Position numbers and translations under genes: made by a program | The notes under the pieces: model-generated | What the model saw: only the letters and a program-made list of their open reading frames with translations | Told to the model about the DNA's origin: nothing | The model's database searches: none | Shown here: one piece after another, positions 25,724 to 59,926 of the stretch | How the letters are laid out: the number at the start of each line of letters is the position of its first letter | How positions within the stretch are numbered: the first letter of the stretch is position 1 | Source: Eledone cirrhosa | Taxonomy: Eukaryota | DNA length: 64,000 nucleotides | Assembly: GCA_964016885.1 (NCBI GenBank) | Contig: OZ024742.1 | Location: 326,554,001-326,618,000 of the forward strand | Direction of reading: 5' to 3'

Positions 25724-25838
<115 letters not shown>

Positions 25839-25840
25839 TG

Positions 25841-25891: not shown

Positions 25892-26026
25892 CCTCTTTTT
25901 CATCCTTTCCACCCACCCCCCTCATTTTTTTCCCAATATCACACATCAATCTAAAACTACTTTTCATATGTTGATTTAAAACTGCACTATTCACAAGTGT
26001 TTTTAACCTTCATATCATGTCTCCCT

Positions 26027-26095
26027 ATTTTATCTGACGAAAACGCAAATGTCATCGCATGATGATATTTGTTTTTGAAATGCGCATAATAAAAT
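26027..26095 (+). ncRNA. Hammerhead family A
   Basis: attttat-CTGACGA-16-bp stem II-GAAA-tgcgca-TA-ataaaat; palindrome ATGCGCAT. Confidence 0.9.
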
Positions 26096-26125
26096 CCATG
26101 GCACTCTTTTAACCATCTTTTGATC

Positions 26126-27310
<1,185 letters not shown>

Positions 27311-27337
27311 CAAAAGATGGTTAAATGAGTGCCATGT

Positions 27338-27406
27338 ATTTTATTATGCGCATTTCAAAAACAAATATCATCATGCGATGACATTTGCGTTTTCGTCAGA
27401 TAAAAT
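27338..27406 (-). ncRNA. Hammerhead family A, sense to the ORF
   Basis: Reverse complement of 26027-26095. Confidence 0.9.
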
Positions 27407-28631
27407 AGGGAGACATATGAAGGTTAAAAACACTTGTGAATAGTGCAGTTTTAAATCAACATATGAAAAGTAGTTTTAGATTGATGTGTGATATTGGGAA
27501 AAAAAATGAGGGGGTGGGTGGAAAGGATGAAAAAGAGGAGGAGATGAGAGTAAAGAATGGAGGGGGAGGAGTATAATAAGGAAGAATGAGATAGGAGGAG
27601 AGATGGGTGTTAGAGAGAGAGATAGCTTTTATAACTGAGAAAAATATATTGTTTTACAGAGAGAGGTTAAAAAACCGTTGGAAGATAATATATAAATTAA
27701 AAGAATTTGAAAATTAACGAAGAGAAAAATTTAAGAATAATGTTAAATTAAGGTTTGTATATTGAAGAGTTTAATAATATGTGCGATGAAAAGAAATTGT
27801 TAATATGTATTAAGAATAATATTAAGTTAAGGTTTGAATATTGAAGGGTTTAATAATATGTGCGATGGAAAGAAATTGTTGATATGTATTATTAAAAATA
27901 AAAATCGTAATGTAATTAAGGATATATTGTGAAAAGAAGTAGAAGAGTGGATGAATTATGAATTTAGAGGAATTAGTTAGTGTTTAAGTATGTTCTTATG
28001 TAAAGTAATATGTATGTGTAATATATAAATAGTTTGTTTACAAATGAGCGCAGAAAGTAAAGGAGATAGTGTTTAAGGAGAAGACTTTAACATCAAAATA
28101 TGTATGTTTATGAAGTATTTCCTAATGGTAATAATATAATGTAATAAAGGAGATTAGTTAGTTTTTAAGTTTGTTTTTATGTGTTGTGATGTGTAAGTTA
28201 GACGAGCATGAAAGAGAGAAAAATATAATGAATTGAGGATGAATAATCTAACGTAAAAAAAAATGTTTGTTTGCGAAGGATTTTTCAAGGTGATACTATA
28301 AAGTATTTAAAAGGGTAATAGTAAGTCTTATGGCCAGTGATAGGATGGAAGAAGGAAGAGTGGATATATTGTGGTCAGTAATAATGAGAATCGAGAAGTA
28401 TCTAGGAAGAAAAGGTACAGATTAGAGGTTAGAAATTAAAAGAAAAAGGGAAAAAGGAAGAAAGGGAAGTGAAAGATAGGAATGATAAAGAATGGGTAAC
28501 TAATATTATATAATGTATAATAAATAACATTGAAATAAGGTAGAAAGATGGGTATATTTTTAAAGAAAAATATATATATATATATATGTGCCTTTGAGAA
28601 AAAGGATTTTAAATTGGTAAAGTATTAGATA

Positions 28632-30991: not shown

Positions 30992-31204
30992 GTTGTAGAA
31001 GAAAAAGTGAAGGACCATCAAAAGGTATCCAATATGAGAGTTAGCGCTCAACCGTTAAGGAGCAAGTTAATGTAGGAGGTGAGTTTTATTGTAGTACAAT
31101 AAAGCAATGCAGATATCGCACATCAATCTAAAACTACTTTTCATATGTTGATTTAAAACTGCACTATTCACAAGTGTTTTTTAACCTTCATATCATGTCT
31201 CCCT

Positions 31205-31273
31205 ATTTTATCTGATGAAAACGCAAATGTCATCGCATGATGATATTTGTTTTTGAAATGCGCATAATAAAAT
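31205..31273 (+). ncRNA. Hammerhead family A in the inverted pLTR
   Basis: Same fold with a CTGATGA core. Confidence 0.9.
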
Positions 31274-31494
31274 ACATGGAACTCTTTTAACCATCTTTTG
31301 ATCTTATATATTATTTATACTCCAGTCCTACAAACTGTAGAGTGCTACTTATCCGATATCTGCATTGCTTTATTGTACTACAATAAAACTCACCTCCTAC
31401 ATATATATATTTTAAGGAACGATCGACTTTCGTCAAATCGGACCGAGGGAACAATGTTTCCGTTAGTCTTTCCAATTGCTAATACTATCTATCG

Positions 31495-36139: not shown

Positions 36140-36262
36140 TATATAAACGTTTGAATATGTGTAATAAAGCCAAAACAATGCAGGTATGGACATAGAAAAA
36201 AGAATGCAATTGTAAAAGATATTGTTGACAATTCGTCCTTTACCTTGAATTTATTTTAATGT

Positions 36263-36297
36263 CCTTAATTTTCGAGATAATATCTCTTCTTCGGAGG
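36263..36297 (-). ncRNA. Candidate variant hammerhead
   Basis: cct-CCGAAGA-a-gagat att atctc-GAAA-at-TA-agg; U4C, extra A after A9, very short stems; sits at the expected pLTR position. Confidence 0.4.
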
Positions 36298-36718
36298 GAA
36301 ATAAAGGTCTCAAACCAGCGATTTAAATATGTAGCCAAGCCATGCTAACAGGAAATAGTATAGAGTATCTGTTCTATCTCTAATATCAAAGAATTAAAAT
36401 TAGGTGGATAAAGAGTAGTCTCCCTTTAAAAGGGGTTTGTTTAGGGGGTTTTTTGTTTTTATTTTATATACATGCCTGTATAAGTGTGTGGGAGAATGCA
36501 TGAAGGTGTAGGTATGTGTGAGTGTGGGAAGATAGGTCTATTCGTAAATGTGGGGGGTAGGTGTTATCTGGTGTTAGAACTGGTTTTGTGTGTGTATGTG
36601 TGAGAGAGAATAAGTGGAGGTGTAAGTGTGTGTGCGCGTGCGTGTGTCTGTGCGCGTGCGTGTGTCTGTGCGCGTGCGTGTGTGTGTGGGGTGTGTAAAT
36701 AAGGGGCTAGAGGCCCTA

Positions 36719-38590
<1,872 letters not shown>

Positions 38591-38642
38591 CATATATATA
38601 TATATATATACATATATATACATATATATACATATATATATT

Positions 38643-38694
<52 letters not shown>

Positions 38695-38698
38695 TATC

Positions 38699-38771
<73 letters not shown>

Positions 38772-38774
38772 AAG

Positions 38775-38809
<35 letters not shown>

Positions 38810-38819
38810 GTATGTATAA

Positions 38820-38913
<94 letters not shown>

Positions 38914-38923
38914 GTATGTATAA

Positions 38924-38975
<52 letters not shown>

Positions 38976-39019
38976 GTATGTATAAGTATATATATATATA
39001 TATAGTTTTAATATAGATG

Positions 39020-39070
39020 AGATTCTACAGGACTAGAACTGTTTCATTCATTAGAAATCATCAGGAATCT
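39020..39070 (-). ncRNA. Hammerhead family B
   Basis: Reverse complement of 54359-54409. Confidence 0.82.
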
Positions 39071-39787
39071 GGGTATCAAAAAATAAATATGGTATTTATA
39101 GGTCTCTACAAGTGGTAGGAGAGGGTGGGGAGTGGGATGGGTGCAGGTCATTGGTTGATAGAAAAGGGAATTCATTAAAAGCTAATTCTACAAAGCTATA
39201 GATTATTTTTATTTTTATTTATATTTATTTATGTTTTTAGAGTAACAAAGGCAGACAGAATTCTATAAACAGGTTCCGGATGGCATACCATTCCTTGTCA
39301 ATAAGTTTCTCTTAAGCTAACAGATGTCTATAAAATCAGTGGGGGGTCAGTCATGGTCGATAGAATTAAAGAAAAGGGAGATTCTTTAAAAGCTAAAGTC
39401 ATTAAGGTTCTACTAAGTGACAAAGGTCTAGAGAATTCTGCAGACAGATTCAAAATACTGAGTGCATATCTTACTATTATCTTCGAACTTCTCTTAAACT
39501 AATCAACTATATGCCAAAAATCAAAGGACACATTCACAAAAAAACAAAAAAACAAAAAAACAAAAAAACAAAAAAACAAAAAAACACATACTCACTCACA
39601 CACTTACGCGCAACCATAAACACACACACAAACACATATACACACATAAAAAAACACACACACATATATAAAAATATATAAATATATATAAATATATATT
39701 CATGTACACACACAAACATACACACATACATACATACATACACATACAATACATATACATATATATATATACACACATACACACACG

Positions 39788-39851
<64 letters not shown>

Positions 39852-39974
39852 GATACACACACACACATACACATACATACACACACACACATATATATAC
39901 ACAAATAAATACTCACACTCATACATACAAACACGAGTAAACATATGTATAAATATCCATACATACACACATAT

Positions 39975-40017
<43 letters not shown>

Positions 40018-40162
40018 CACATATATATATATACATATACATATATATATATATATATCCATACATATACAAACATACACATACATACACAGACCTATAC
40101 ATAAATATACACATATATATACAGACATATAACGCATATATACACACACATATACATATACA

Positions 40163-40198
<36 letters not shown>

Positions 40199-40203
40199 CA
40201 TAC

Positions 40204-40234
<31 letters not shown>

Positions 40235-40384
40235 CACACACGCGCATACACACATACACACACCCACACACAAAATATATATACACACTCTCTCTCTCAC
40301 GCACATATATATATATATATACACATACACATATATATACATATATACACACACACATATATATATATATATACATATATACAC

Positions 40385-40416
<32 letters not shown>

Positions 40417-40548
40417 ATACACATATATATATATATATACACACATACACACACATACACACATATATATATACATACACACATACACATACACAGACAC
40501 ATACATATACACATATATATACACACATATATATATATATACACACAT

Positions 40549-40582
<34 letters not shown>

Positions 40583-40779
40583 GTAGATAAATCTACCAAG
40601 AGTTTACGGTAGTGTCCAATCCGTATGAAGAACTCAATGTATTCCGGATATCATGGAAAGAAGAAATGTAATGAAAAATCACTTTCGGTGAAAGATAAAC
40701 GGTATACAGAGTCAAGATAAAATATTAAACAAATAATGAATAAACAATGAAAACAGTTCCTTATATTAAACAAAAAAAG

Positions 40780-40933
40780 TTCATTATTTAACGATCGTTT
40801 CTAGGATATATATGTGTTAGAATTGGCATGCATATTCAACAGATCTATGTACAAAATTATACAAAATTATACAAACTATCAAGATTAAATATACATACCA
40901 ACACATATATACGCCGTCTTCAGAAATAATGAA
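40780..40933 (-). ncRNA. Hammerhead family C with ~115-nt stem II
   Basis: ttcattattt-CTGAAGA-long hairpin-GAAA-cgatcg-TT-aaataatgaa; 10-bp stem I; palindrome ACGATCGT. Confidence 0.85.
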
Positions 40934-41573
40934 ATATATTTATTGATAATAACAACAATTCAAAATTTCAGGTCCGTTTGGGAACAAAATTGACCAATGA
41001 AAATACAAAAGGTTTAATGCAGTTCAGTGTGTGTATATACATGTAACTACCCTTACACATATTTTACAAAAATGTATGTACAACTTGTATACGCATATCA
41101 AAAGGATGGATGCAAGTACAAAATTTCAAGGTTAATGTCTCTGTAAGTTTATAATGCACAGATAAGATGCGTATAGACACATAAATATGAAATAAGTGTA
41201 TATACATATTCACATAGTCATACATATCCGTACAATCATACACACACGCGCGTATATGCATAAACATACACATAACTACGAACATACAAACACACACACA
41301 CCCCCACTCACATATATATATGTGGATATAAAATCCTAAGCACATGGATATTAATTCACTCACATAAACACTGGCACACACATTTAGATCAAGATACAGA
41401 AATTAGGTGGGAGGGGGGGAGAGGTCAGTATTCAACGGTTTTGGCAGACTGCTTAATATAGATGTATCTATAAACTAAGAAAATAAAAAATAATAAATAA
41501 TAAATAAACAATAAAAGGAAAGAAAAGAAAAAGAAAAAAGAAAAAAGAAAAAAGAAAAAAGAAATATATCAAG

Positions 41574-41641
<68 letters not shown>

Positions 41642-41815
41642 CATACATACATATATATACATACACACACACACACACATACATATATATATATACACAT
41701 ATACAAACACATACATAGATATACACACATCCACACTTAGAACATACATACACACACATATATAAAAACATATACATATACACACATACATACATATACA
41801 CACATACATATAAAT

Positions 41816-41878
<63 letters not shown>

Positions 41879-42179
41879 TACATACATACACATACATACA
41901 CATATAATCACACATACTATATAGACACACATATATATACACACATACACGCACATATACATACACTTACATACTTATATACATACAGATATAGACATAC
42001 ATACCTATATATACACACAAATACATACAGACATACATACATACATACAGACAAATACTTACGCATCTATATATCGGTATATACATACAAACACCACTAC
42101 ACTCTCACACAACTCAGACATACAAAGAAAAAGGTATATACCTATACACAAATACATATACAAATAGAGAAACATATAC

Positions 42180-42254
<75 letters not shown>

Positions 42255-42452
42255 CACATACACATACATACACACACACATACATACACATACATGTACA
42301 CACACATAGATATATATACACATACATACATACACACATACATATATAGTCATACACACAGATACACCTACACGAACATACACATACACATATATAAAGA
42401 TATATATACACACACACACACACATACACACACACACATATATATAAAATAA

Positions 42453-42503
<51 letters not shown>

Positions 42504-42840
42504 TACATATACATACATACACACATACATAGACATATATGTACATACATACACATACACAGATACATACACACACATACATACATATATATATACACAC
42601 GTAGACATATACATACAAACACACACAACTTACATACACACATATATATTCATATATAGAATTAGATATATATTCATACATACACTCGCACTTACATATA
42701 CTCATATATATAAATACATAGGCATTCATATATGCGTATATACATAGAAACACCAATACACACTCACCCAACTCAGACATACAAAGAAAAAGGCATATAC
42801 ATATATATATATATATACACGCATTAATAGAGATATATAT

Positions 42841-42881
<41 letters not shown>

Positions 42882-43103
42882 CACTTATATATATATACCC
42901 ACACACACATACAACCATAAATACACATACAAACACCCACATATACATATATATACACATATATATATATACACACACACATAAAAAACAGACATGCACA
43001 TATATATTTTTTACACATATATATACACATATATATACATATACACAGCCTCACATATACACACATACACATAAGTTATATTATAATAATAAATAATATA
43101 TAT

Positions 43104-43146
<43 letters not shown>

Positions 43147-43409
43147 CGAATATAGACACATATACACACATAGATATATATATACGTATATATATATATA
43201 TACATACATATACACACACACATATACACACTCACATATATATATATGTGTGTGCAAACACACATATATATACACATACACACATATACACATAAACACA
43301 TATATGTGTATACATGCACACACACACATATATCCACATAGATACGAAGATAGACATATAAATAGAGAGACATACATATATATACACACACACATATACA
43401 TACATACAT

Positions 43410-43458
<49 letters not shown>

Positions 43459-43777
43459 CACACATACACATACACATATATATACACATGCATATATACA
43501 CATATACACATACATACACACATATATATACACACACAATCTTACATTCTTATTTGCATGCGCATATATGTATTTTTATATTCAGATATAAATACCCAAA
43601 CTTATATACACCTACCTACATATATATTCATACATACACACTTACAAACACAGATGATAATAGTATGGGGGAAAGGGGGGGGGGGGGTTGGAGAAGGGGA
43701 TTATAGTAAATATATGTTTCAAGAAACATAGAATATTATCCGTATCTGGATCCAATGTATGTTTTTACATATTTTCA

Positions 43778-45678
43778 AGGATCATAAATCAAACTTTAAC
43801 TCAAATCCTTCTATTAGACTTATATGTCCCTCCAAATCAGATATTGGAATAATTAGCAAAAAAATTTTGGATAGAGTCATCCCACAAATAAGAAAACATG
43901 TTATTTTACCACTCTGGGAAAACACCTCCCAGGTAATTAACTGGTTTAAAAATATTAGATGTAAATCTTCTGCTTCATTTCTACAATTTGATATAGATAA
44001 TTACTATTCTTCTATATCACCTATACTCCTGAACAAAGCATTGATATTTGCTAAAAATAGATCTAACTTAACCTTGGATGACATTAATATTATTACACAT
44101 GCTAGACTAAGACTTATTGAATTTCAGAATGAATACTGGACCAGAAACACATATAGTAATCTATTTGATATTACTATGGGTTCAAGCGATTCCGCCCAAA
44201 TTACTGATCTTGTGGGCCTCTTTCTCCTTTTCAACATAAATGCCTCCTTTCCCCACCACAAAGGTGGTTTATATCGTGATGACTGTCTTCTTCTTTCTAA
44301 CAACCTTAGCCTTTCAGAAATTGAAAAAAACAAAAAACATATTAGAACTTTCCTTAAAGACTATTATAATCTTAATATTACTTTTGAAAAAACAAGTAAA
44401 GTAGTAAATTTCCTAGATATAACTTTAGATTTAGCTACGGGTATCTACCAACCTTACCATAAACCAAACCAAAACTTACATTACATACACTCACAATCTA
44501 ATCACCCTAAATCTATCCTTAAAAACCTTGCATATAATATATCACTTAGAATTTCTAACCTTTCATCTAACCAAGATGTATTTGATAAAAATGCGACCTT
44601 CTATAACGAAGCTCTAGATAGAAGTGGCCACAAAAATAGATTAGAATATATACCTTCTACTAAAAATACTGTAAGCATACAACCTAATATTACCAACAAA
44701 CACCAAATGAAAAGTACACACCTAAATGCCACCCACACTATACCCCAAAATACCAAATCTTCTAATATAAAGTATAGTAACTCTCAAAAAACTACTCATC
44801 ATACAACTCTAATAAATATTAATAATAAAACTCCAAATAAAAAGGATAAAACACCTAAATCTACAAATATAACTAAAAATGGTTGTGGTAAGATCATTAA
44901 CATTAATCCTCCTAGTAAAAATCACGATACAACCTATAAAAATAATAAAAATAATAAACAACATAGAAACCGTAATAGACAGGTTACTTGGTATAATGCT
45001 CCATTTAATTTACAAATTAAGGATAATATTGCTAAAAAAATTTTTTATATCCTAGAGAAAAACTTCCCGCCAAACCACAAATACCATCAAATCTTAAATA
45101 GGTCTACAGTTAAATTCTCATACTCTACAACAAATAACATAAAACAAAATATAAGTGCCTATAATGCATATAAATGTAAGAAAACCATAAGTATACCACC
45201 AGTACATCAAACTAACCATAATATCTCCTCAAATACAGAATTAACGAAAGGTTGTAACTGTAGAAACAAAGCAAACTGCCCATTAAAAGGGAATTGTCTT
45301 GTTAACAACATAGTATATAAATGTAATGTTAAAACTAAAGATTCTATTTGCTCATATATAGGAGCTACCTCTAACAATTTTAAGACAAGGTTTAATACCC
45401 ACAAGCATAGTTTTAAAAATGCCGCACTGGCTAATACAACATCTCTAGCAGAAAAAATCAATAGTTATAAAAATAAGAATATAGAATATGATTTGACCTG
45501 GAGTGTGCTCAAAAGAGCCACCCCTTATCAAAATAATAGAAATGAATGTAGATTATGTTCCCAAGAACTATTTGAAATAATGAAATCTAAGGATATCCTA
45601 TTAAATAAACGACAGGAATTAATTATATCGTGTAATCATAAACTAAAAAAAACATTTAAATATTATAAACCTAATTAA
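43778..45678 (+). CDS. Naiad-type RT + GIY-YIG endonuclease, open but 5'-truncated at KDHK
   Basis: KDHK, RLICPSKSDIG, FLQFDIDNYYSSI, MGSSDSAQITDLVG, GLYRDD, NFLD, SNHP, CNCRNKANCPL, VYKC..YIG, CRLCSQE, LNKRQE..CNH. Confidence 0.93.
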
Positions 45679-46218
45679 TAACATTATTTTAGAAATTAAT
45701 TTAATTTAAATGTTAGTTAACCTATAAATTTAATTTAATTAAAATTCTATTACAGATGAGAATATAAAATATTATGTAATCTTAAATTGTGAAAAACCTT
45801 TAAATATTACTAATATATACTTAGTAATTTAATTTATAGATTAATTTTAATTTATTTAAACCTTTATTATAATTCTTTTACAGATAAAATATAACAAAAT
45901 ATCGTGTATCCAATGACAGAGAAATAATTTTTAGTATTATAGACCTAATTAATATACATTTTAGAAATATATTTATAATTTGGTTTTAATTTTAGTCAAC
46001 CTAAAAATTTAATTTAATTGGCTTAAAATTAGTATCCTTATACAGACGAATTGCAGAATGTCATGTAATCATAGAATGAGATGTGTTTTGGATATATACC
46101 TAGTTAATATATTCTTTGCAATTTTTGAAAAAATATGTATATGTATATGTTGTATGTGTATGTGTGTGTGTGTGTATATGTGTATATATGTATGTATATA
46201 TGTATATATATGTATATA

Positions 46219-46251
<33 letters not shown>

Positions 46252-46995
46252 TAATTTTGATTTCTATTTGCATATAATTATATTCTGCTATTGATAAAAT
46301 ACAATATCTGTTTTATTTATTATATACCTAATTAACATATACTATAGAAATAAATATATAATTTTTAATTTAGTTAACCTATAATTTATATTCTACTACC
46401 GATGTAATACTTATTTGTTTTTTTCCCTATTACTAAATTCATTTCCTAATATTGATACCATAACGTTATTAACTTTAATTTAGTTATACTATAATCAATA
46501 CTCTACTACTTTTTAACTTCAAAATTCTGCTTCAAATATTATAAACCTAACTAATTTACACCTTAGAAATCAATATGTTAACTATCTTTAGTTTAGTTAA
46601 CATATAATTAATGGTATACTTATTTATTTTGAAATGCATAAATTTTGCCTTATTTCTTGTTTATTGTATTTCCTAACACTGAAAATATGTAAAAACATAC
46701 ATTGGATCCAGATACGGATAATATTCTATGTTTCTTGAAACATATATTTACTATAATCCCCTTCTCCAACCCCCCCCCCTTTCCCCCATACTATTATCAT
46801 CTGTGTTTGTAAGTGTGTATGTATGAATATATATGTAGGTAGGTGTATATAAGTTTGGGTATTTATATCTGAATATAAAAATACATATATGCGCATGCAA
46901 ATAAGAATGTAAGATTGTGTGTGTATATATATGTGTGTATGTATGTGTATATGTGTATATATGCATGTGTATATATATGTGTATGTGTATGTGTG

Positions 46996-47072
<77 letters not shown>

Positions 47073-47337
47073 ATGTATGTATGTATATGTGTGTGTGTAT
47101 ATATATGTATGTCTCTCTATTTATATGTCTATCTTCGTATCTATGTGGATATATGTGTGTGTGTGCATGTATACACATATATGTGTTTATGTGTATATGT
47201 GTGTATGTGTATATATATGTGTGTTTGCACACACATATATATATATATGTGAGTGTGTATATGTGTGTGTGTATATGTATGTATATATATATATATACGT
47301 ATATATATATCTATGTGTGTATATGTGTCTATATTCG

Positions 47338-47404
<67 letters not shown>

Positions 47405-47629
47405 ATATATATATTATTTATTATTATAATATAACTTATGTGTATGTGTGTATATGTGAGGCTGTGTATATGTATATATATGTGTATATATATGTGTAAA
47501 AAAATATATATGTGCATGTCTGTTTTTTATGTGTGTGTGTATATATATATATGTGTATATATATGTATATGTGGGTGTTTGTATCTGTATTTATGGTTGT
47601 ATGTGTGTGTGGGTATATATATATAAGTG

Positions 47630-47674
<45 letters not shown>

Positions 47675-48011
47675 ATATATATCTCTATTAATGCGTGTAT
47701 ATATATATATATATGTATATGCCTTTTTCTTTGTATGTCTGAGTTGGGTGAGTGTGTATTGGTGTTTCTATGTATATACGCATATATGAATGCGTATGTA
47801 TTTATATATATGAGTATATGTAAGTGCGAGTGTATGTATGAATATTTATCTAATTCTATATATGAATATATATGTGTGTATGTAAGTTGTGTGTGTTTGT
47901 ATGTATATGTCTACGCGTGTATATATATATGTATGTATGTGTGTGTATGTATCTGTGTATGTGTATGTATGTACATATATGTCTATGTATGTGTGTATGT
48001 ATGTATATGTA

Positions 48012-48084
<73 letters not shown>

Positions 48085-48290
48085 TTATTTTATATATATG
48101 TGTGTGTGTGTATGTGTGTGTGTGTGTGTGTGTATATATATCTTTATATATGTGTATGTGTATGTTCGTGTAGGTGTATCTGTGTGTATGACTATATATG
48201 TATGTGTGTATGTATGTATGTGTATATATATCTATGTGTGTGTACATGTATGTATGTGTATGTATGTGTGTGTGTATGTATGTGTATGTG

Positions 48291-48365
<75 letters not shown>

Positions 48366-48666
48366 GTATATGTTTCTCTATTTGTATATGTATTTGTGTA
48401 TAGGTATATACCTTTTTCTTTGTATGTCTGAGTTGTGTGAGAGTGTAGTGGTGTTTGTATGTATATACCGATATATAGATGCGTAAGTATTTGTCTGTAT
48501 GTATGTATGTATGTCTGTATGTATTTGTGTGTATATATAGGTATGTATGTGTATATCTGTATGTATATAAGTATGTAAGTGTATGTATATGTGCGTGTAT
48601 GTGTGTATATATATGTGTGTCTATATAGTATGTGTGATTATATGTGTATGTATGTGTATGTATGTA

Positions 48667-48711
<45 letters not shown>

Positions 48712-48891
48712 ATTTATATGTATGTGTGTATATGTATGTATGTGTGTATATGTATATGTTTTTATATATGTGTGTGTATGTATGTTCTAAGTGTGGATGT
48801 GTGTATATCTATGTATGTGTTTGTATATGTGTATATATATATATGTATGTGTGTGTGTGTGTGTATGTATATGTGTATATATGTATGTATG

Positions 48892-48965
<74 letters not shown>

Positions 48966-49591
48966 CTTGATATATTTCTTTTTTCTTTTTTCTTTTTCTT
49001 TTCTTTCCTTTTATTGTTTATTTATTATTTATTATTTTTTATTTTCTTAGTTTATAGATACATCTATATTAAGCAGTCTGCCAAAACCGTTGAATACTGA
49101 CCTCTCCCCCCCTCCCACCTAATTTCTGTATCTTGATCTAAATGTGTGTGCCAGTGTTTATGTGAGTGAATTAATATCCATGTGCTTAGGATTTTATATC
49201 CACATATATATATGTGAGTGGGGGTGTGTGTGTGTTTGTATGTTCGTAGTTATGTGTATGTTTATGCATATACGCGCGTGTGTGTATGATTGTACGGATA
49301 TGTATGACTATGTGAATATGTATATACACTTATTTCATATTTATGTGTCTATACGCATCTTATCTGTGCATTATAAACTTACAGAGACATTAACCTTGAA
49401 ATTTTGTACTTGCATCCATCCTTTTGATATGCGTATACAAGTTGTACATACATTTTTGTAAAATATGTGTAAGGGTAGTTACATGTATATACACACACTG
49501 AACTGCATTAAACCTTTTGTATTTTCATTGGTCAATTTTGTTCCCAAACGGACCTGAAATTTTGAATTGTTGTTATTATCAATAAATATAT

Positions 49592-49747
49592 TTCATTATT
49601 TCTGAAGACGGCGTATATATGTGTTGGTATGTATATTTAATCTTGATAGTTTGTATAATTTTGTATAATTTTGTACATAGATCTGTTGAATATGCATGCC
49701 AATTCTAACACATATATATCCTAGAAACGATCGTTTTAAATAATGAA
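49592..49747 (+). ncRNA. Hammerhead family C, 3' copy with two extra T at the cleavage site
   Basis: GAAA-cgatcg-TTTT-aaataatgaa, versus TT in the 40780 copy. Confidence 0.75.
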
Positions 49748-49801
49748 CTTTTTTTGTTTAATATAAGGAACTGTTTTCATTGTTTATTCATTATTTGTTT
49801 A

Positions 49802-49867
<66 letters not shown>

Positions 49868-49928
49868 CACACACATACACATACACATACATATACATAT
49901 ATATACATATATAAACACACATATATAC

Positions 49929-49959
<31 letters not shown>

Positions 49960-50110
49960 TATACACACATATATACACATACACATACATATATATATAT
50001 ATATACATACATATACACACATATATATAAATATATATACACACACATACATATACATACATATACACACACACACACATACACACATATACATATATAC
50101 ACATACAAAT

Positions 50111-50188
<78 letters not shown>

Positions 50189-50207
50189 CTGCCCACACAA
50201 CATATAC

Positions 50208-50257
<50 letters not shown>

Positions 50258-50269
50258 GCACACACAAAC

Positions 50270-50328
<59 letters not shown>

Positions 50329-50459
50329 CATATATATACACACACATACATATACACATATATATACATATACACACACATACATACACACATACACATA
50401 CATATACATAAACATACATACATACATACACATACATACATACATACATACACATACAT

Positions 50460-50504
<45 letters not shown>

Positions 50505-50600
50505 CACATACACAAACATATACATACATATACATACATAAATATACACACTTAAAACACATATACACACAAACATATATATATATACATATGTATACAT

Positions 50601-50697
<97 letters not shown>

Positions 50698-50916
50698 TAC
50701 ACACACACACATATACAAACAAATATATACACATACAAGTAAATAGGTACTCAATAAATATACGCATATACGCAGGCACATAAAGACACCTCTACAGGCA
50801 GAAAATGTAGATACGAAAGAGGTACTCACATAACCATAGTGGCCGTATTACAGGTTGAGGAGGGGTGGGGGGTAGGGTGGGGAGGAGGTATAGGGGCCAA
50901 TAGGGGGAGGTCGTTT

Positions 50917-51466
50917 TTAGCCATCGGGCTTTAACACTGGCTTAAAGTGTTTGAATGTTGCAAAGTTCTTGTGCATGCAGTTCGGGCAGTGTTCAGAGAG
51001 TTTGTTCAGTAGCGGGCCCTTGGCGAATAAAATTTCGTAGCTCTCTGAAATACAAAGGTCGCAGCCCTTGTGTCCTCCGTTGTAAGAGCGCGCTTTCTGG
51101 AGTATTTTCCAATTAAGCGTGAAGGGGGTGGAGTTCCTTTTGAGGTCCCAAACGTAGGAGGCGAGTGTTGTCTGATTTGATTTATCCGGTCTCCTGAAGG
51201 AGTGGGTATGGGCATACCAACGGGTCTTAAAGTTGTTGGAGGTCATGCCGATGTAAGTTTTTTTGCAATCCTCGGTGCCTGAGATGACATCGCATTTGTA
51301 TACGATGTCATTTGTGAGGCATTTGTTTTCTAGTGGGCATGCTTCCTTATTTAGGCAATTACATAGAGCCCCAGTCCGGGGATTGGTTTCGGAGGTGGTT
51401 GGCTTATTTAGTTTAGAGTTGTGGTTGGCTATATTCCTAGCTAGGTTAGGTGTGGTGGAGTAAGAC
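50917..51466 (-). pseudogene. Naiad-type linker + GIY-YIG endonuclease fragment
   Basis: SYSTTPN..CNCLNKEACPLENKCL..VYKC..YIGMTSNNFKTRWYAH..CDLCISE..LLNK..CMH. Confidence 0.9.
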
Positions 51467-51467
51467 A

Positions 51468-51738
51468 GGATAAATCAAATCAGACAACACTCGCCTCCTA
51501 CGTTTGGGACCTCAAAAGGAACTCCACCCCCTTCACGCTTAATTGGAAAATACTCCAGAAAGCGCGCTCTTACAACGGAGGACACAAGGGCTGCGACCTT
51601 TGTATTTCAGAGAGCTACGAAATTTTATTCGCCAAGGGCCCGCTACTGAACAAACTCTCTGAACACTGCCCGAACTGCATGCACAAGAACTTTGCAACAT
51701 TCAAACACTTTAAGCCAGTGTTAAAGCCCGATGGCTAA
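51468..51738 (+). pseudogene. Inverted duplicate of the endonuclease C-terminus
   Basis: Reverse complement of 50917-51187. Confidence 0.9.
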
Positions 51739-51956
51739 AAACGACCTCCCCCTATTGGCCCCTATACCTCCTCCCCACCCTACCCCCACCCCTCCTCAAC
51801 CTGTAATACGGCCACTATGGTTATGTGAGTACCTCTTTCGTATCTACATTTTCTGCCTGTAGAGGTGTCTTTATGTGCCTGCGTATATGCGTATATTTAT
51901 TGAGTACCTATTTACTTGTATGTGTATATATTTGTTTGTATATGTGTGTGTGTGTA

Positions 51957-52027
<71 letters not shown>

Positions 52028-52123
52028 ATGTATACATATGTATATATATATATGTTTGTGTGTATATGTGTTTTATGTGTGTATATTTATGTATGTATAT
52101 GTATGTATATGTTTGTGTATGTG

Positions 52124-52176
<53 letters not shown>

Positions 52177-52329
52177 ATGTATGTGTATGTATGTATGTAT
52201 GTATGTATGTGTATGTATGTATGTATGTTTATGTATATGTATGTGTATGTGTGTATGTATGTGTGTGTATATGTATATATATGTGTATATGTATGTGTGT
52301 GTATATATATGTATATATATATATATATA

Positions 52330-52360
<31 letters not shown>

Positions 52361-52413
52361 GTATATGTGTATATATATGTATGTGTGTATATATGTGTGT
52401 ATATATGTATATA

Positions 52414-52480
<67 letters not shown>

Positions 52481-52496
52481 GTATGTATGTGTGTGC

Positions 52497-52560
<64 letters not shown>

Positions 52561-52709
52561 ATTTGTATGTGTATATATGTATATGTGTGTATGTGTGTGT
52601 GTGTATATGTATGTATATGTATGTGTGTGTATATATATTTATATATATGTGTGTATATGTATGTATATATATATATATATGTATGTGTATGTGTATATAT
52701 GTGTGTATA

Positions 52710-52752
<43 letters not shown>

Positions 52753-52805
52753 GTGTGTTTATATATGTATATATATGTATATGTATGTGTATGTGTATGT
52801 GTGTG

Positions 52806-52860
<55 letters not shown>

Positions 52861-52992
52861 ATGTGTGTATATATATATATATGTGTGTATATATATGTGT
52901 ATATGTATGTGTCTGTGTATGTGTATGTCTGTATGTATATATATATGTGTGTATGTGTGTGTATGTGTGTATATATATATATATATGTGTAT

Positions 52993-53026
<34 letters not shown>

Positions 53027-53181
53027 GTGTATATATGTATATATATATATATGTGTGTGTGTATATATGTATATATATGTGTATGTGTATATATATATAT
53101 ATATATGTGCGTGAGAGAGAGAGTGTGTATATATATTTTGTGTGTGGGTGTGTGTATGTGTGCATGCGCGTGTGTGTATAT

Positions 53182-53215
<34 letters not shown>

Positions 53216-53220
53216 GTATG

Positions 53221-53282
<62 letters not shown>

Positions 53283-53425
53283 TGTATATATGTATATGTG
53301 TGTGTATATATGCGTTATATGTCTGTATATATATGTGTATATTTATGTATAGGTCTGTGTATGTATGTGTATGTTTGTATATTTATGGATATATATATAT
53401 ATATGTATATGTATATATATATATG

Positions 53426-53490
<65 letters not shown>

Positions 53491-54358
53491 ATATGTGTGT
53501 ATGTATGGATATTTATACATATGTATACTCGTGTTTGTATGTATGAGTGTGAGTATTTATTTGTGTATATATGTGTGTGTGTGTGTATGTATGTGTATGT
53601 GTGTGTGTATCTGTGTGTGTGTATATATATATATATATCTATATATATATATGTGTGCGTGTGTGTATGTGTGTATATATATATATGTATATGTATTGTA
53701 TGTGTATGTATGTATGTATGTGTGTATGTTTGTGTGTGTACATGAATATATATTTATATATATTTATATATTTTTATATATGTGTGTGTGTTTTTTTATG
53801 TGTGTATATGTGTTTGTGTGTGTGTTTATGGTTGCGCGTAAGTGTGTGAGTGAGTATGTGTTTTTTTGTTTTTTTGTTTTTTTGTTTTTTTGTGAATGTG
53901 TCTGTTGATTTTTGGCATATAGTTGATTAGTTTAAGAGAAGTTCGAAGATAATAGTAAGATATGCACTCAGTATTTTGAATCTGTCTGCAGAATTCTCTA
54001 GACCTCTGTCACTTAGTAGAACCTTAATGACTTTAGCTTTTAAAGAATCTCCCTTTTCTTTAATTCTATCGACCATGACTGACCCCCCACTGATTTTATA
54101 GACATCTGTTAGCTTAAGAGAAACTTATTGACAAGGAATGGTATGCCATCCGGAACCTGTTTATAGAATTCTGTCTGCCTTTGTTACTCTAAAAACATAA
54201 ATAAATATAAATAAAAATAAAAATAAACTATAGCTTTGTAGAATTAGCTTTTAATGAATTCCCTTTTCTATCAACCAATGACCTGCACCCATCCCACTCC
54301 CCACCCTCTCCTACCACTTGTAGAGACCTATAAATACCATATTTATTTTTTGATACCC

Positions 54359-54409
54359 AGATTCCTGATGATTTCTAATGAATGAAACAGTTCTAGTCCT
54401 GTAGAATCT
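54359..54409 (+). ncRNA. Hammerhead family B
   Basis: agattc-CTGATGA-t ttc taat gaa t-GAAA-cag ttctagtc ctg-TA-gaatct. Confidence 0.82.
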
Positions 54410-54492
54410 CATCTATATTAAAACTGTTATACTCTGCTATGTATTGAGTACCTTACTTACTGTGGTTACCTCCGATTCAACCCGGAATAACG

Positions 54493-54539
<47 letters not shown>

Positions 54540-54556
54540 GTGTGTATATATATATG

Positions 54557-54664
<108 letters not shown>

Positions 54665-54665
54665 A

Positions 54666-55018
<353 letters not shown>

Positions 55019-55032
55019 CATATATAGAGAGA

Positions 55033-55825
55033 GAGAGAATTAGTACATCTACCAACATATGTGTACAGATGTACACCCATGCTAGCAAATATATATGTTA
55101 TGACTTAGTACCTTTGTGGTTCTATGCAGGGGGATGCAGAACAATTATATGAAAGACGTAAAATAAGAAAATTTTAAAAATTAAAAATCAACTTACTAAA
55201 ATGTTCACTCCAACTAATTAGTTTCTGTAAGGGGATAAATATAGTTACGTAATATAACTATAGAGAATTCCTTACGTCATCAGGGAGTCTATTCTCAGCT
55301 AAGTTCCCAGGCGATGCGCGGACACTAGGAACCCATATAAAAATAATAATTCAGTGGATGGAATAAAGCTAGCGAGGACTAAATTCCAGAGCACTGAAAA
55401 AATTCATTGCCTCTGGTAAGTGGCAGATTCTAAAGAATCAATCACGTGACACTGAGGTTAATCAGTTAGGAGCGGGGTGGTATTATGACAAGCGCCTACT
55501 ACTACCATGAATCAGCAGTAAATTTTGGCAAGTTTTGCTTAACAAATAATTTGGAGATAAGTATAGAGAATTAATACATCTACCAACATATGTGTACAGA
55601 TGTACACCCATGCTAGCAAATATATATGTTATGTCTTAGTACCTTTGTGGTTCTATGTAGGGGGATGCAGAACAATTATATGAAAGACATAAAATAAGAA
55701 AATTTTAAAAATTAAAAATCAACTTACTTCCTAAAATTTTTACTCCGCGCATCGCCTGGGAACTTAGCTGAGAATAGACTCCCTGATAACGTAAGGAATT
55801 CTCTATAGTTATATTACGTAACTAT
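55033..55825 (-). mobile_element. ORF-less PLE derivative (family D): direct ~165-bp repeats plus a short inverted arm
   Basis: 55033-55197 is repeated at 55565-55728; 55746-55825 is inverted to 55241-55321. Confidence 0.75.
55207..55288 (-). ncRNA. Hammerhead family D
   Basis: actcc-CTGATGA-c gtaagg..tatagtta/taactata..ccttac a-GAAA-ctaattag-TT-ggagt. Confidence 0.88.
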
Positions 55826-55864
55826 GTTTCGGCGAAGTCCAAGGCGGCAGTAAGTAGCGGTAAG

Positions 55865-57265
55865 GTGATTGCTTGCTACTATGCTTCAATCACCTTACCG
55901 CTACTTACTGCCGCCTTGGACTTCGCCGAAACACTTGTGCCCATCACCGACCAGGAAAGAAAAATCATCCTCCACGCCAGGAAGACAGTCTTACTCTTTG
56001 ACGACTCTAAATGGATAAAAAGAGCTCCCGACTCACCCTTCGACGTCAGCATGGGCGCCACGGATTCGGCGGAGGTCACAGATCTTATAGGATTATTCCT
56101 AATAGCCAAACTCACTGATAGGTTTCCTGCATTCGGTGGTGGATTGTACCGTGATGATGGGCTCCTTACCCTTAAAGGGTACAACCCCAGTAGTACAGTT
56201 CGGGTCCGGAAACAATTAATCAGATTCTTCCGCGACTGGGGATTTAAAATAACCCTACAAACGTCCCTGACCAGAGTAAACTTCCTGGACGTGACCCTCG
56301 ACCTCGAAAACGACCTGTACTACCCATACAGGAAACCTAATGACAATCTGCACTACATCCACCGCCGATCAAACCATCCTAGGAACATCACGAACAACCT
56401 GGTCAAAAACATCTCCCTCCGCATATCCCGTTTGTCAGCTAATGAGCGGATATTCGATGAACATGCGCCTTATTACAACCAGGCCCTCAAGCGGAGTGGT
56501 TTCCGGGAGGAAATATCCTACTGTCCAGCTCCCACTAGCGGAACCAGCAGGAGACACCGCCGCTCACGCAATGTAACATGGTTCAATCCTCCCCACAACG
56601 CAGAGGTGACAACTCCCATCGGGAAACTATTCTTTAGGCTCATTGAAAAACACTTCCCATTACAACACCGCTACCACAACATAATTAACAAAAATACCAT
56701 CAAACTCTCTTACAGCACTACACCAAACTTCGCACAAAACATCGTCTCCTCTAACAACAAAAAACTCAACCCCGATGGCAGAAATAACCTAAATAGCAGT
56801 GGAGAACCGACCAGGAGGTGTAACTGCCCGGATAGATCTATTTGCCCACTCGACAATAGATGCAGAGACCGTAATGTGATCTACCAGTGCAACGTGAGGA
56901 CGGATACCTCCAACAAAGCCTATATAGGACTTACCGCATGTGACTTCAAGACCCGGCTATACCAACATAGACATACCTTCCGAAACCCGGCCCGGCGTCA
57001 CGCCACTACACTTTCGGGCCACATATGGGACCTCAAGGACAACAACATCACCTATGATCTCACTTGGAGATTACTGTCCAGAGCCAATTCTTACACGGGA
57101 GGACGCCGTCCGTGCAATTTATGCTCGGAGGAAACTTTACAAATGCTGTTTTCGACGGACCAACTCCTAAACAAGAAAGATGAACTGGTTACTGCATGTA
57201 AACATAGATTGCGTAGGACTTACCTCGCCCTCAAACCCCATAATGACCCCGGGGGGGTAGACTAG
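55865..57265 (+). CDS. Naiad-type RT + GIY-YIG endonuclease, open but 5'-truncated
   Basis: FDVSMGATDSAEVTDLIG, GLYRDDG, VNFLDVTLDL, SNHP, WFNPP, CNCPDRSICPL, IYQC..YIG, CNLCSEE, LLNKKDE..CKH. Confidence 0.93.
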   Translation: MIACYYASITLPLLTAALDFAETLVPITDQERKIILHARKTVLLFDDSKWIKRAPDSPFDVSMGATDSAEVTDLIGLFLIAKLTDRFPAFGGGLYRDDGLLTLKGYNPSSTVRVRKQLIRFFRDWGFKITLQTSLTRVNFLDVTLDLENDLYYPYRKPNDNLHYIHRRSNHPRNITNNLVKNISLRISRLSANERIFDEHAPYYNQALKRSGFREEISYCPAPTSGTSRRHRRSRNVTWFNPPHNAEVTTPIGKLFFRLIEKHFPLQHRYHNIINKNTIKLSYSTTPNFAQNIVSSNNKKLNPDGRNNLNSSGEPTRRCNCPDRSICPLDNRCRDRNVIYQCNVRTDTSNKAYIGLTACDFKTRLYQHRHTFRNPARRHATTLSGHIWDLKDNNITYDLTWRLLSRANSYTGGRRPCNLCSEETLQMLFSTDQLLNKKDELVTACKHRLRRTYLALKPHNDPGGVD

Positions 57266-58386
57266 GGCTATAACACCCCACTTGCCGATTTTGCAATGGG
57301 TAACCCCTGCTTGCCAAGGGAGACGTAAGATCTTCTTTGTATTCTTTTATCGCTTCCTTTATTTCCTTCCTTCCCCCCTCTCTCCTTAGTCCTTCTACCC
57401 CAGCTCTTCTTTGTCGGCGTCTTTTCTCGCCCACCCGAGGCTGCCCTTTGGCCCCTTGTAGCCTTAGTACCCCACCCCCTCCCCTAGTCTAGGATAGATT
57501 TGGCGGACTCCGCCCTTTATAGCAGTTGGTTTAGACCCCGGATACTTGTCCCCTTTTTCCGACCGCTCCCACTATTCTCTGTGCCCTCTATATTTCTTAG
57601 TGGCACTTATGCCTTATTTTTTCGTTTCAGTATTTCTTTCTTCGCTTTTCTTTTGGGCGGGGTGGATTCTGAATTTATTCTTCCGTATTCTACCTTTACT
57701 TCGTACGAACTTTCATGTAGCTTGTTTTAGATCTTTTAGAGTTAGCATTAGTATATATTTTTCTCGGGACTCAGAATTATTATCTCGTATTAGTTCACTT
57801 TGCTGCACTGGGTGGTTGCTGGAATTGTGCCCGGGATGGAAACCTTTATTGTTTATTTCGTGGTAGTCTCTTTAGTATTTTGGCCCCTTTTGTTGACCCG
57901 TCACCGTATCATTTACGTACTTATACCTCTTAAAAGGGTCCTCGCCTATTCTGTCCCACCTAGTTCTTTTACTTATTTCGTTATTTCTTTATTTCTTTCT
58001 TTACTTCTTTCTTTCTTTATTTATTTATTTATTCTAGACTAACAATAGCTAGAGACCTAGGTCGTAGAATTTAATTTACTTTACTTTTTTCTTTACACTC
58101 ATTTGTTTTTCTTTACACTTATTTGCTTTTCTTCACTCTCAGTATTTTTATTTCTACCCCCCATTGTTCTACCTACCGTTCCGACTTCCTCCCCCCCCCC
58201 CCCCTCCCCTGTATATTCTTTGACCTCATGCCCAGCTGTAGCTGGCACTACAAACGCTTGATTGCGGCTACTCCACCCCCTCCCCTCTTTCTCCTACTGG
58301 CAGGTTTAGCCACCATCTCCCCTACTAATTTGCAACCACAGAATTACAACTGATTTTTGACAATCACTTTGACCATATATGGAATT

Positions 58387-58480
58387 ACCCCTTGAGAAGA
58401 TCGGCTATTTAAATACCAGGATAAATTTTCATTTGGTCCAGAATTAGCCGTCGAAACGGCTTGAGCTCAGCTGTCGGGGT
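58387..58480 (+). ncRNA. Hammerhead family E, U3-A8 core, GUC site
   Basis: acccc-TTGAGAA-gatcggcta...tagccgtc-GAAA-cggc ttgagctca gctg-TC-ggggt. Confidence 0.88.
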
Positions 58481-58639
58481 CTTACTGGTTCCTATTACCC
58501 ACTCTACTACCTCAAGTATTGAGTACTTTGGTGCGTTATGGTCCACCTGGTTCCTTACCACATTTCCTTCGTTATGTATATATATATGTATATATATATG
58601 TAAATATATATATAGGTATATATATATATGTATATAAAC

Positions 58640-59488
58640 ATGGTAGTAAAAACTCCCCCACAGTCAGGAATTAGAGAAAAACACCATGGAAAGCATCCAG
58701 CAAATAGCTAACTCCATCCACCAAAGTACTATAGACTACCCAGGAAAACAACCCAACCATCGATTACCTGTACTAGACACAGAGCTCTGGTTAGATACCA
58801 TTAATAACAAAAAACAAATCCTCCATTCCCATTATGCCAAACCCATGACTTCCAAATATCTGATCCACCGAAACTCAGCTGTTTCGGACCATACCAAAAT
58901 CAACATACTGATTGCGGATTTGGTACGGGTGATGAGAAACGTGTTCCGCATGTGCAACCCCAAAGAACTAGAAAAACACATAAAACACTTCATCCACCGT
59001 ATGCAATTCTCTGGTTACAATCAGAGAGATAAGATCACAGTATAAAGAGGAGCCAGAACCAAATGGGAAAAAATGGTAAATAATGATACAAATAGGACCT
59101 GCCCCTTGTACAGGAGCAAATTCTGGAATAGAATGGAAAGAACTAGGAATAAGGTTAATAGAATAAACTCATGGTATGATAGCAATAAATACCGGAGTGT
59201 AATGTTCATCGATACAACCCCTAGAGGTGAATTAGCTTATAAATTTAGAAGGGCCCTGGATAAACATAAACTCAATATTAAGATAGTAGAAAGACCAGGT
59301 ATCTCCATAAAAACAATTATTAGCAATACATACCCTTTTCAAAGACCTCCCTGTATAGATAAGAAATGTATAATCTGTAAACTAAGCCCCCATATTAACT
59401 GTAAAACTAGAAATGTAGTATACAGCATAAGATGTACTGAAGGACAATGTAGAGATAAGAATATAGTGTACATAGGTGAGACAGCTCG

Positions 59489-59489
<1 letters not shown>
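58640..59489 (+). pseudogene. Internal fragment of another PLE type (thumb, Zn linker, start of GIY-YIG)
   Basis: LPVLD, HYAKPM..IHRNSA..K, MQFSGY, PCIDKKCIIC..CKTRNVVYSIRC..YIGETAR; one frameshift; TA on both sides. Confidence 0.85.
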
Positions 59490-59521
<32 letters not shown>

Positions 59522-59678
59522 TGTTATACTTTGGGAGGGTCATGTTGCCAATAAGAAACACACGCACCAGTTGTTTCACTTCAATTTATTATAATAAATT
59601 TATAAACTTAGGAATTTATAAATTTATAAATTTCTGGTTGGTTGGTTGGTTCCACAACCAGATAGTTGTTTATATATT

Positions 59679-59721
59679 GTCAAAGTTCTTTCGTCACACA
59701 TTCTGTGACCTCTTCAGTGAC
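59679..59721 (-). ncRNA. Minimal hammerhead with an extra G after A9 (solo terminus 59520-59928)
   Basis: gtca-CTGAAGA-g-gtcaca gaatg tgtgac-GAAA-gaac-TT-tgac. Confidence 0.7.
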
Positions 59722-59926
59722 TGGGGATTCTTTTCTTTGTTTTTGTGCCTCTCCTTTGTTCTGTCCTACGCCATTTTGTTTCTGTGTCACATTTATCAAA
59801 TATTTCCTCATAGGAGCTTTTTAATCTTATAGCCTGGTCTAATTGATTTTAAATGTGGTTAATTATGCTAATTGGGAGAGGAAATAGTGTTTATATTTTA
59901 TCAAATGATTCTATGGACATACTTTA

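Follow-up and report, generated by a model that had tools for sequence, protein, structure and literature searches.

Can a retrotransposon that inserts into TA repeats carry such repeats as part of its own sequence, and does it thereby supply the genome with new targets? This question is raised by a 64,000-nucleotide stretch of the Eledone cirrhosa genome (assembly GCA_964016885.1, 3.0 Gb; contig OZ024742.1, positions 326,554,001 to 326,618,000, forward strand), hereafter the window, in which two Penelope-like elements (PLEs), families B and C, lie one inside the other. Each holds a kilobase-scale TA/TG microsatellite mosaic, here called cargo, between its open reading frame (ORF) and a hammerhead-like motif near its 3′ end. 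We find that hundreds of copies scattered over the genome contain the mosaic as element sequence and that other elements use it as a landing site, while it adds only an estimated 1–3% to the simple-repeat load of the genome.

The mosaics are inherited family sequence

Comparison of the window with itself by self-BLAST revealed two nested palindromes. The outer one, family C (39005–54492), is a head-to-head Hydra-type PLE, and the inner one, family B (40583–49810), interrupts the minus arm of C within a TA run of its internal repeat. The B mosaic (46924–48962) lies between the ORF stop at 45678 and the hammerhead-like motif at 49592, and the C mosaic (~51917–53850) between the ORF stop at 51738 and the motif at 54359.

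We assign the mosaic to the element because other genomic copies carry it; the arms in the window would be insufficient by themselves. The best 40 copies each of the B and C unique 3′ regions showed 98–100% identity, and interruptions of the window mosaic recurred upstream of the 3′ region in the loci listed (about 19 of 30 in one set). Genome-wide, exact mosaic motifs of B had 406 and 231 matches and those of C 251 and 333, versus 0 for reversed-pattern controls. The 40 ten-kb loci examined next yielded 31 cargo arms of B and 12 of C, whose interruption 14-mers we compared after collapsing runs. In this comparison with other copies, a check that the initial annotation had proposed, homologous mosaic was present in every arm (31/31 B; 12/12 C). 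Among the arms listed, B cargo measured 1.67–2.31 kb and shared 23–90% of its 14-mers with the window (61–90% in 19 close arms, 23–62% in 12 arms of other B subfamilies), and the 12 C arms shared 33–61%. Mosaic-bearing copies lay on many chromosomes with differing flanks, and included tandem copies and single arms. The earlier proposal that the mosaic was copied as part of the element is borne out by these copies.

The inverted arms of B aligned with 3,022 matches, 5 internal substitutions, 1 mismatch at the edge of the alignment and 15 gaps, all of which were run-length changes, and had 92% of interruption 14-mers in common. The C arms differed by 41 aligned mismatches and a reshuffled block (~52340–52550), with 84% of 14-mers in common. 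The initial annotation had described both mosaics as reproduced interruption for interruption, which is accurate for B and only approximate for C. As controls, the other family's mosaic shared 2–10% of 14-mers and, among those listed, six unrelated mosaics of the window 0–2%. The greater divergence of the C arms fits B being the younger insertion.

The site of the nested insertion could be read exactly: the C plus arm has TATATG(TA)17(TG)7, and the minus arm TATATG(TA)27-[B]-(AT)10(GT)7. A cargo TA run was indeed used by the nested PLE, as had been claimed, within the equivalent of (TA)17, and cargo runs were used likewise at other loci. The two halves of the split target (40563–40582 and 49808–49861) contain 37 TA units in total, versus 17 in the uninterrupted arm. 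Beside young insertions the median flank is 12–16 TA units long, versus 6 for background runs, and the target may get longer on insertion.

Anatomy of the nested insertion

Family C is flanked by TA-rich target tracts on the left (38406–39004) and right (54493–55026). Its minus arm runs from 51468 to 49811 and continues beyond B from 40582 to 39005, opposite a plus arm at 51469–54492; self-BLAST paired 39005–40582 plus 49827–51192 with 51463–54426. The distal part of the inverted C arm (39005–40582, minus strand) contains the short end (39005), a hammerhead-like motif (39070–39020) and the distal half of the cargo.

The inverted B arm follows (40583–43777, minus strand; 40717–43777 versus 46680–49810 by self-BLAST). 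It begins with a 134-nt tail that forms the long end (40583–40716) and contains an intact hammerhead-like motif (40933–40780), cargo (~41577–43538) and part of the 3′ untranslated region (UTR). On the plus strand, B continues with a 5′-truncated ORF (43778–45678) for reverse transcriptase (RT) and a GIY-YIG endonuclease (EN) at the C terminus, and with an AT-rich 3′ UTR (45679–46923) that includes a short TG/TA tract (46133–46251). Next come the cargo (46924–48962), with 11 runs of at least (TA)8, and the unique 3′ region (48963–49810), with the hammerhead-like motif from 49592 and the short end at ~49808.

To the right of B stands the (TA)27 half of the split C cargo run (49808–49861), the other half being the (AT)10 at ~40563–40582. 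The proximal part of the inverted C arm (49811–51468, minus strand) comprises a 3′ piece of the ORF, the UTR and the proximal cargo. The direct C arm (plus strand) comprises the ORF end with its stop at 51738 and the UTR (51469–51916), the cargo (51917–53850) with 18 runs of at least (TA)8, and the unique 3′ region (53851–54492), which bears a type I hammerhead-like motif (54359–54409) and a 66-nt tail as the long end (54427–54492). Both plus-strand mosaics are those common to genomic copies.

The cargo is derived and family-specific

The cargo is a derived, family-specific feature. Among the matches listed, two B relatives without the mosaic (L057 and L140) were 83–90% identical to B in nucleotide sequence at the ORF end, and their stop-to-hammerhead distance was ~0.7 kb, versus 3.9 kb in B. 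Other B subfamilies, which we call older, carry a homologous mosaic with reshuffled blocks. Three other PLEs of the window (A, D and E) have no cargo. The B and C mosaics are unrelated to each other, and cargo was therefore gained at least twice. We propose that B and C would each have gained a TA/TG tract independently, either captured by a source copy's 3′ UTR or grown there, and that slippage and block loss would have followed as subfamilies replaced one another.

Cargo might also be kept because it is useful, for example by aiding the annealing of nascent complementary DNA (cDNA) to the far TA end or by shaping the RNA, rather than being a passenger. The unrelated B and C mosaics do occupy the same position and agree in strand bias (G-skew 0.68 and 0.90), B subfamilies retain the mosaic despite block turnover, and many C arms end in cargo without an inverted partner within 1.5 kb. 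This last signal, however, is confounded by nested insertion, since in several such arms a later insertion has divided the cargo (L113, probably L297), and both the close relatives and the other window PLEs do without any cargo. We regard a useful cargo as unlikely.

Cargo TA runs are landing sites for other elements

Four C cargo loci selected for odd motif spacing (L113, L116, L119 and L120) illustrate how other elements use the cargo. At L113 it holds a PLE of another clade (965 aa), which we take to be Neptune-like. The cargo at L120 contains a long interspersed element (LINE) and that at L116 a piece of one, which from their motifs we presume to be RTE-like and CR1-like, respectively. A 466-bp hammerhead-bearing tandem, retrozyme-like in character, occupies the cargo at L119. 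Of the first 30 C loci, 5 had foreign sequence within 1.5 kb that adjoined a cargo TA run; 3 further flagged loci of the 30 proved to be one gap and two shortened cargos, and not inserts. The initial annotation had envisaged a feed-forward loop in which TA-targeting PLEs spread new TA targets. Given these inserts in cargo TA runs, such a loop exists and serves other elements too.

A separate arrangement was seen at loci L114–L115 (C1:83.68–83.70 Mb), a head-to-tail array of at least 12 units of ~1.08 kb. Each unit consists of distal C cargo, hammerhead and tail, and restarts in a TA run. The array looks like a retrozyme arising from family C.

The cargo contributes little to the genome's repeat load

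We estimated the size of this contribution from a random sample of 48 stretches of 20 kb (960 kb; 0.03% of the genome), drawn from 50 random sites of which two fell outside the short C16. TA/TG/CA tracts made up 10.8% of the sample (bootstrap 7.5–14.8%) and Tandem Repeats Finder (TRF) repeats with a period of up to 6 made up 14.1%; extrapolated to the genome, tracts would total ~320 Mb and (TA)8+ runs would number an estimated 3.8 million. Most of the sample's tract load came from TA/TG tracts of 3–8 kb with local higher-order periodicity (L201–L202, L205–L206), which are interrupted by fragments of a common interspersed repeat.

No B or C cargo was detected in the random 960 kb, where positive controls gave 37–539 library k-mers, and 0 of 55 unselected insertion ends lay within B or C cargo. 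Genome-wide, the arms reaching the cargo edge numbered 1,533 for B, versus 4,947 long ends, and 1,169 for C, versus 16,924 hammerhead motifs; less than 300 nt of mosaic was present at 14 of 30 C edge loci. Even with a full cargo assigned to each arm, B and C together would amount to no more than ~6.2 Mb, or 1.4–2.8% of the load, with a middle estimate of 1%. Most PLE families encountered, among those listed, were without such cargo.

Sequence upstream of the 79 hammerhead-like motifs in the sample accounted for 20.0% of its length and 21.6% of its tract bases, which is no enrichment, while 150–300 nt downstream, on the target side, tract density rose three-fold (0.31 versus 0.11). The initial annotation had suggested measuring the microsatellite fraction between PLE ORFs and hammerheads. 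In the sample, 28 PLE ORF ends were listed, 17 of them closed by a hammerhead within 5 kb, and the intervals, which cover 2.2% of the sample, contained 3,023 tract bases out of 103,315 (2.9%), again without enrichment; two-thirds of the 3,023 bases came from one interval that apparently crosses an element boundary.

It could be that B and C are the latest of many cargo waves, and that a large part of the microsatellite load descends from retrotransposed cargo. If so, earlier G-skewed TA/TG mosaics would have lost their flanks, grown by slippage and become the landing ground of a guild of TA-targeting elements. We consider this history improbable.

The strong form of the feed-forward loop, in which TA-targeting PLEs seed much of the genome's simple repeats, was offered as a possible explanation in the initial annotation, and the quantities do not support it. 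It has in its favor that the cargo is heritable and struck by later insertions, that PLEs occur in great number (79 hammerhead-like motifs in 960 kb), and that by calculation a B or C insertion brings roughly 0.7–3 new (TA)8+ runs on average. Yet cargo amounts to at most ~6 Mb of the ~320 Mb, no unselected insertion end fell within it, and its runs number at most tens of thousands, against the estimated 3.8 million. Moreover, the large tracts of the sample show their own local periodicity and not common mosaics, and tract density is raised downstream of hammerheads rather than upstream. We consider so strong a loop very improbable.

B and C have the motifs of Hydra-clade PLEs

To judge from their sequences, B and C are TA-targeting PLEs with Hydra-clade motifs. 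Full natural B copies (L061, L123, L127) have an ORF of 813 aa with YRDD and YIGAT, and natural units measure 6,758 nt for B (L127) and 5,513 nt for C (L118). B has the Hydra-clade motifs RWR37, DKT115, the CNCRNKANC673 linker, CRLC771 and CNH799, and C has RWR (L118), DKT, CNCLNKEAC, CDLC and CMH; whether the GIY-YIG core lacks the CCHH motif, as in that clade, was assessed by eye on translations only. Partial tandems (pLTR) at L061, L062, L118 and L127 match the layout of EN+ PLEs. As in the Hydra clade, insertion is into (TA)n: 137 of 159 distinct ends were followed by at least 4 TA units (48/54, 27/32, 47/53 and 15/20 in four end sets). Membership in Naiad/Chlamys, for which an N-terminal EN and no hammerhead would be expected, does not fit, the endonuclease being C-terminal and hammerhead-like motifs present. 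Hydra-clade elements are generally under 3 kb, and B and C exceed this, although the shortness is a tendency and not diagnostic (PMC8557442). A Pfam search gave no match for the B or A proteins, and PF01541 matched only the 3′ piece of the C ORF (50917–51468), barely above the cut-off (23.7 versus 22.6 bits). A homologue search with 120 results had no named protein among them. The B ORF has an N/K/T-rich low-complexity insert of ~100 aa between RT and EN (window 44650–44960), and most of its homologues are ~700 aa, versus 813 aa for B.

The B and C motifs are recognisable as hammerhead-like from their core (CUGANGA...GAAAC) and stems, with a stem I of 6 bp in C and 10 bp in B and a compensatory stem I change in the B relative L057; cleavage is predicted only. 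Focused Rfam scans matched no hammerhead family at the motifs. The fold predicted for the C motif was not hammerhead-like (z 0.15), whereas the B motif was predicted to fold with a long stem II in addition to stem I (z −5.6). The plus-arm B motif of the window has 2 additional T at the predicted cut site. In the random 960 kb, a reversed control gave 0 cores versus the 79 motifs found. At ~80 per Mb, there would be roughly 200,000 hammerhead-like motifs genome-wide, from many PLE families. Rfam matches to mir-297 on the mosaics (scan of 24000–64000, top 150 of 283 matches) were rejected as spurious.

The window holds other PLEs as well. Family A (55790–58575, plus strand) is a GC-richer, cargo-free Hydra-type PLE with an unusual core (CTTGAGA...GAAAC) and direct and inverted repeats on its 5′ side (55034–55940). 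PLE D (27320–31054, minus strand) is a frameshifted Hydra-type element with a cargo-free 1.3-kb 3′ UTR, and its terminal 200 bp is found again at 25936–26142 and 31113–31319. Two more PLEs of other clades, with TA-run flanks, lie at 36150–38403 (minus strand) and 58650–59900; one has a DKG motif and one is related to the L113 insert.

Element ends and a proposed route of integration

Across the 40 ten-kb loci, both outer ends could be seen in 19 inverted insertions, and in each of the 19 a long end was paired with a short one, which is also true of B and C in the window. Arm stops clustered 5–7 nt before the hammerhead core. For B, 8 of 30 arms stopped at a single position of three bases; for C, 14 of 30 stopped within a span of ten bases, in a set that is biased because its search motif requires the 3′ half of the core. 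This hot spot differs from the predicted hammerhead cleavage site, which suggests that an RNA 5′ end lies at the hot spot and not at the cleavage site. It occurs in both families (loci L227–L286; window 25836–25891) and yields thousands of hammerhead palindromes of 150–450 bp.

By analogy with an anole PLE studied in vitro, the GIY-YIG nuclease would cut both strands of the TA run. Reverse transcription would start from two internal sites just past the hammerhead, 66 nt (C) or 134 nt (B) apart, and would make one cDNA per strand, both then being joined head to head. The two start sites and two-strand extension of the anole PLE fit the pairing of long and short ends. The unit boundary would fall within the leader of the next repeat, so that anything between ORF and hammerhead would be carried along, and the mosaic is likely copied through RNA together with the element. 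Most cDNAs would come to an end at the hammerhead's 5′ edge, probably where the RNA begins, before reaching the cargo, which would limit the feed-forward loop; an RNA start at the hot spot is the simplest inference for the arm stops. Priming at the 5′ copy of the repeat would give short 'strong-stop' palindromes.

Two further explanations concern the origin of the mosaic and of the palindromes. Arms within one locus are highly similar, as might be expected had the mosaic grown locally after insertion and had fold-back repair or gene conversion then copied it into the second arm, but hundreds of copies with differing flanks, spread over many chromosomes, have identical interruptions, and we find local growth scarcely credible. 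Assembly or amplification chimeras would be conceivable inasmuch as long inverted repeats with microsatellites are in general hard to assemble correctly and no short-read contig among those listed bridges the B junction, but with arms that differ by point substitutions, a long/short end rule obeyed in 19/19 cases, a layout in agreement with published PLE structure (PMC8557442) and B in only one C arm, we give them practically no credence. The genome-wide sharing of interruptions therefore excludes local duplication and artefact as explanations.

Taken as a whole, we consider it highly probable that the mosaic is heritable cargo of a unit copied through RNA, serving as a landing site and making up an estimated 1–3% of the simple-repeat load. 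Several points weigh against this account. Exact motif counts overlook diverged copies. The random sample was drawn without C15–C18 and contigs beyond C21, and rare cargo families and decayed cargo would be invisible in it. Cargo TA runs are often used (~5 of 30 C cargos within 1.5 kb), and the loop is locally real. Copying of the mosaic through RNA is argued by analogy from the element class, sequencing contigs placed on the B ORF having given no usable RNA signal, and the Hydra clade assignment rests on motifs, not on a tree.

Relation to known systems

A kilobase-scale hypermutable microsatellite mosaic can be the inherited sequence of a retrotransposon family. Repeat annotation would split such elements and score their interior as simple repeat, and microsatellite markers placed in the cargo would be multi-copy. 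The locus provides a measured case of a TA-targeting element that supplies targets to itself and to unrelated elements, with a ceiling of 1–3% on the cargo route in a genome with 11–14% simple repeats. The strict pairing of a long with a short end, and the clustering of arm stops at the hammerhead's 5′ edge, are footprints by which the PLE integration mechanism could be tested.

In the literature searched, mainly outside subscription papers, we found no published TA-targeting PLE that carries its own target, and the relevant sections of bioRxiv 10.64898/2026.07.22.740005, PMC3124438 and PMC13282606 contain no statement on cargo. The closest known counterparts of B and C are the Hydra-clade PLEs, of which the 27 families listed measure 1.08–3.05 kb and mostly have (TA)n targets (Craig et al., 2021; PMC8557442). 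The features described there and common to B and C are the C-terminal GIY-YIG domain, RW[KR], DKT, a CxCX5C linker and, close to the end of the EN, CxxC plus CxH, together with a hammerhead or hammerhead-like motif near the 3′ end, (TA)n targets, inverted 5′-truncated copies and a tail at one end. B (~6.8 kb) and C (~5.5 kb) are longer than those families because of the 2-kb mosaic. The comments in the Hydra table, which we compared instead of consensus sequences, mention no internal microsatellite, and the tails are 134 nt (B) and 66 nt (C), versus 30–40 nt in the Hydra elements described (PMC8557442).

Simple sequence repeats (SSRs) within Penelope elements have been described in penaeid shrimp, where recently moved copies with internal SSRs, enriched for long (AT)n, were seen in synteny comparisons and put forward as one way in which SSRs expand (Yuan et al., 2021; PMC7878876). 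The passages on these copies give no clade, target specificity or nested use of cargo, whereas the share of B and C in the load is measured and small. In snakes, CR1-L3 and Rex LINEs seed microsatellites (Pasquesi et al., 2018; PMC6050309), and there too a retrotransposon spreads its own SSR. The snake SSR, as presented there, is a 3′ terminal tail that drives a large motif-specific expansion; that of B and C is internal, kilobases long, equal to the element's own target and a minor share of the load.

For the mechanism, the Poseidon PLE of Anolis, in which both strands are cut and extended in vitro, offers a model: its tail is set by two internal RT start sites, and its AT-rich targets include its own pLTR (Frangieh et al., 2024; PMC11167929). 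It belongs to a different clade and, as described, is without cargo, and its mechanism is carried over to B and C by analogy alone. Among DNA transposons, MuTAnT, which are Mutator-like elements that target TA, and MINEs, with their hitchhiking microsatellites, come closest (PMC4486113). MuTAnT flanks have 15 units per side, versus 9 at empty sites, comparable with 27+10 versus 17 at the B site; in the passages on its targets, MuTAnT is not described with its own target inside (PMC4486113). SSR-carrying Penelope elements (shrimp) and TA-targeting by Hydra elements are already published, separately. New here are Hydra-type elements doubled in length by a heritable, target-like cargo, with a small measured effect on the repeat load.

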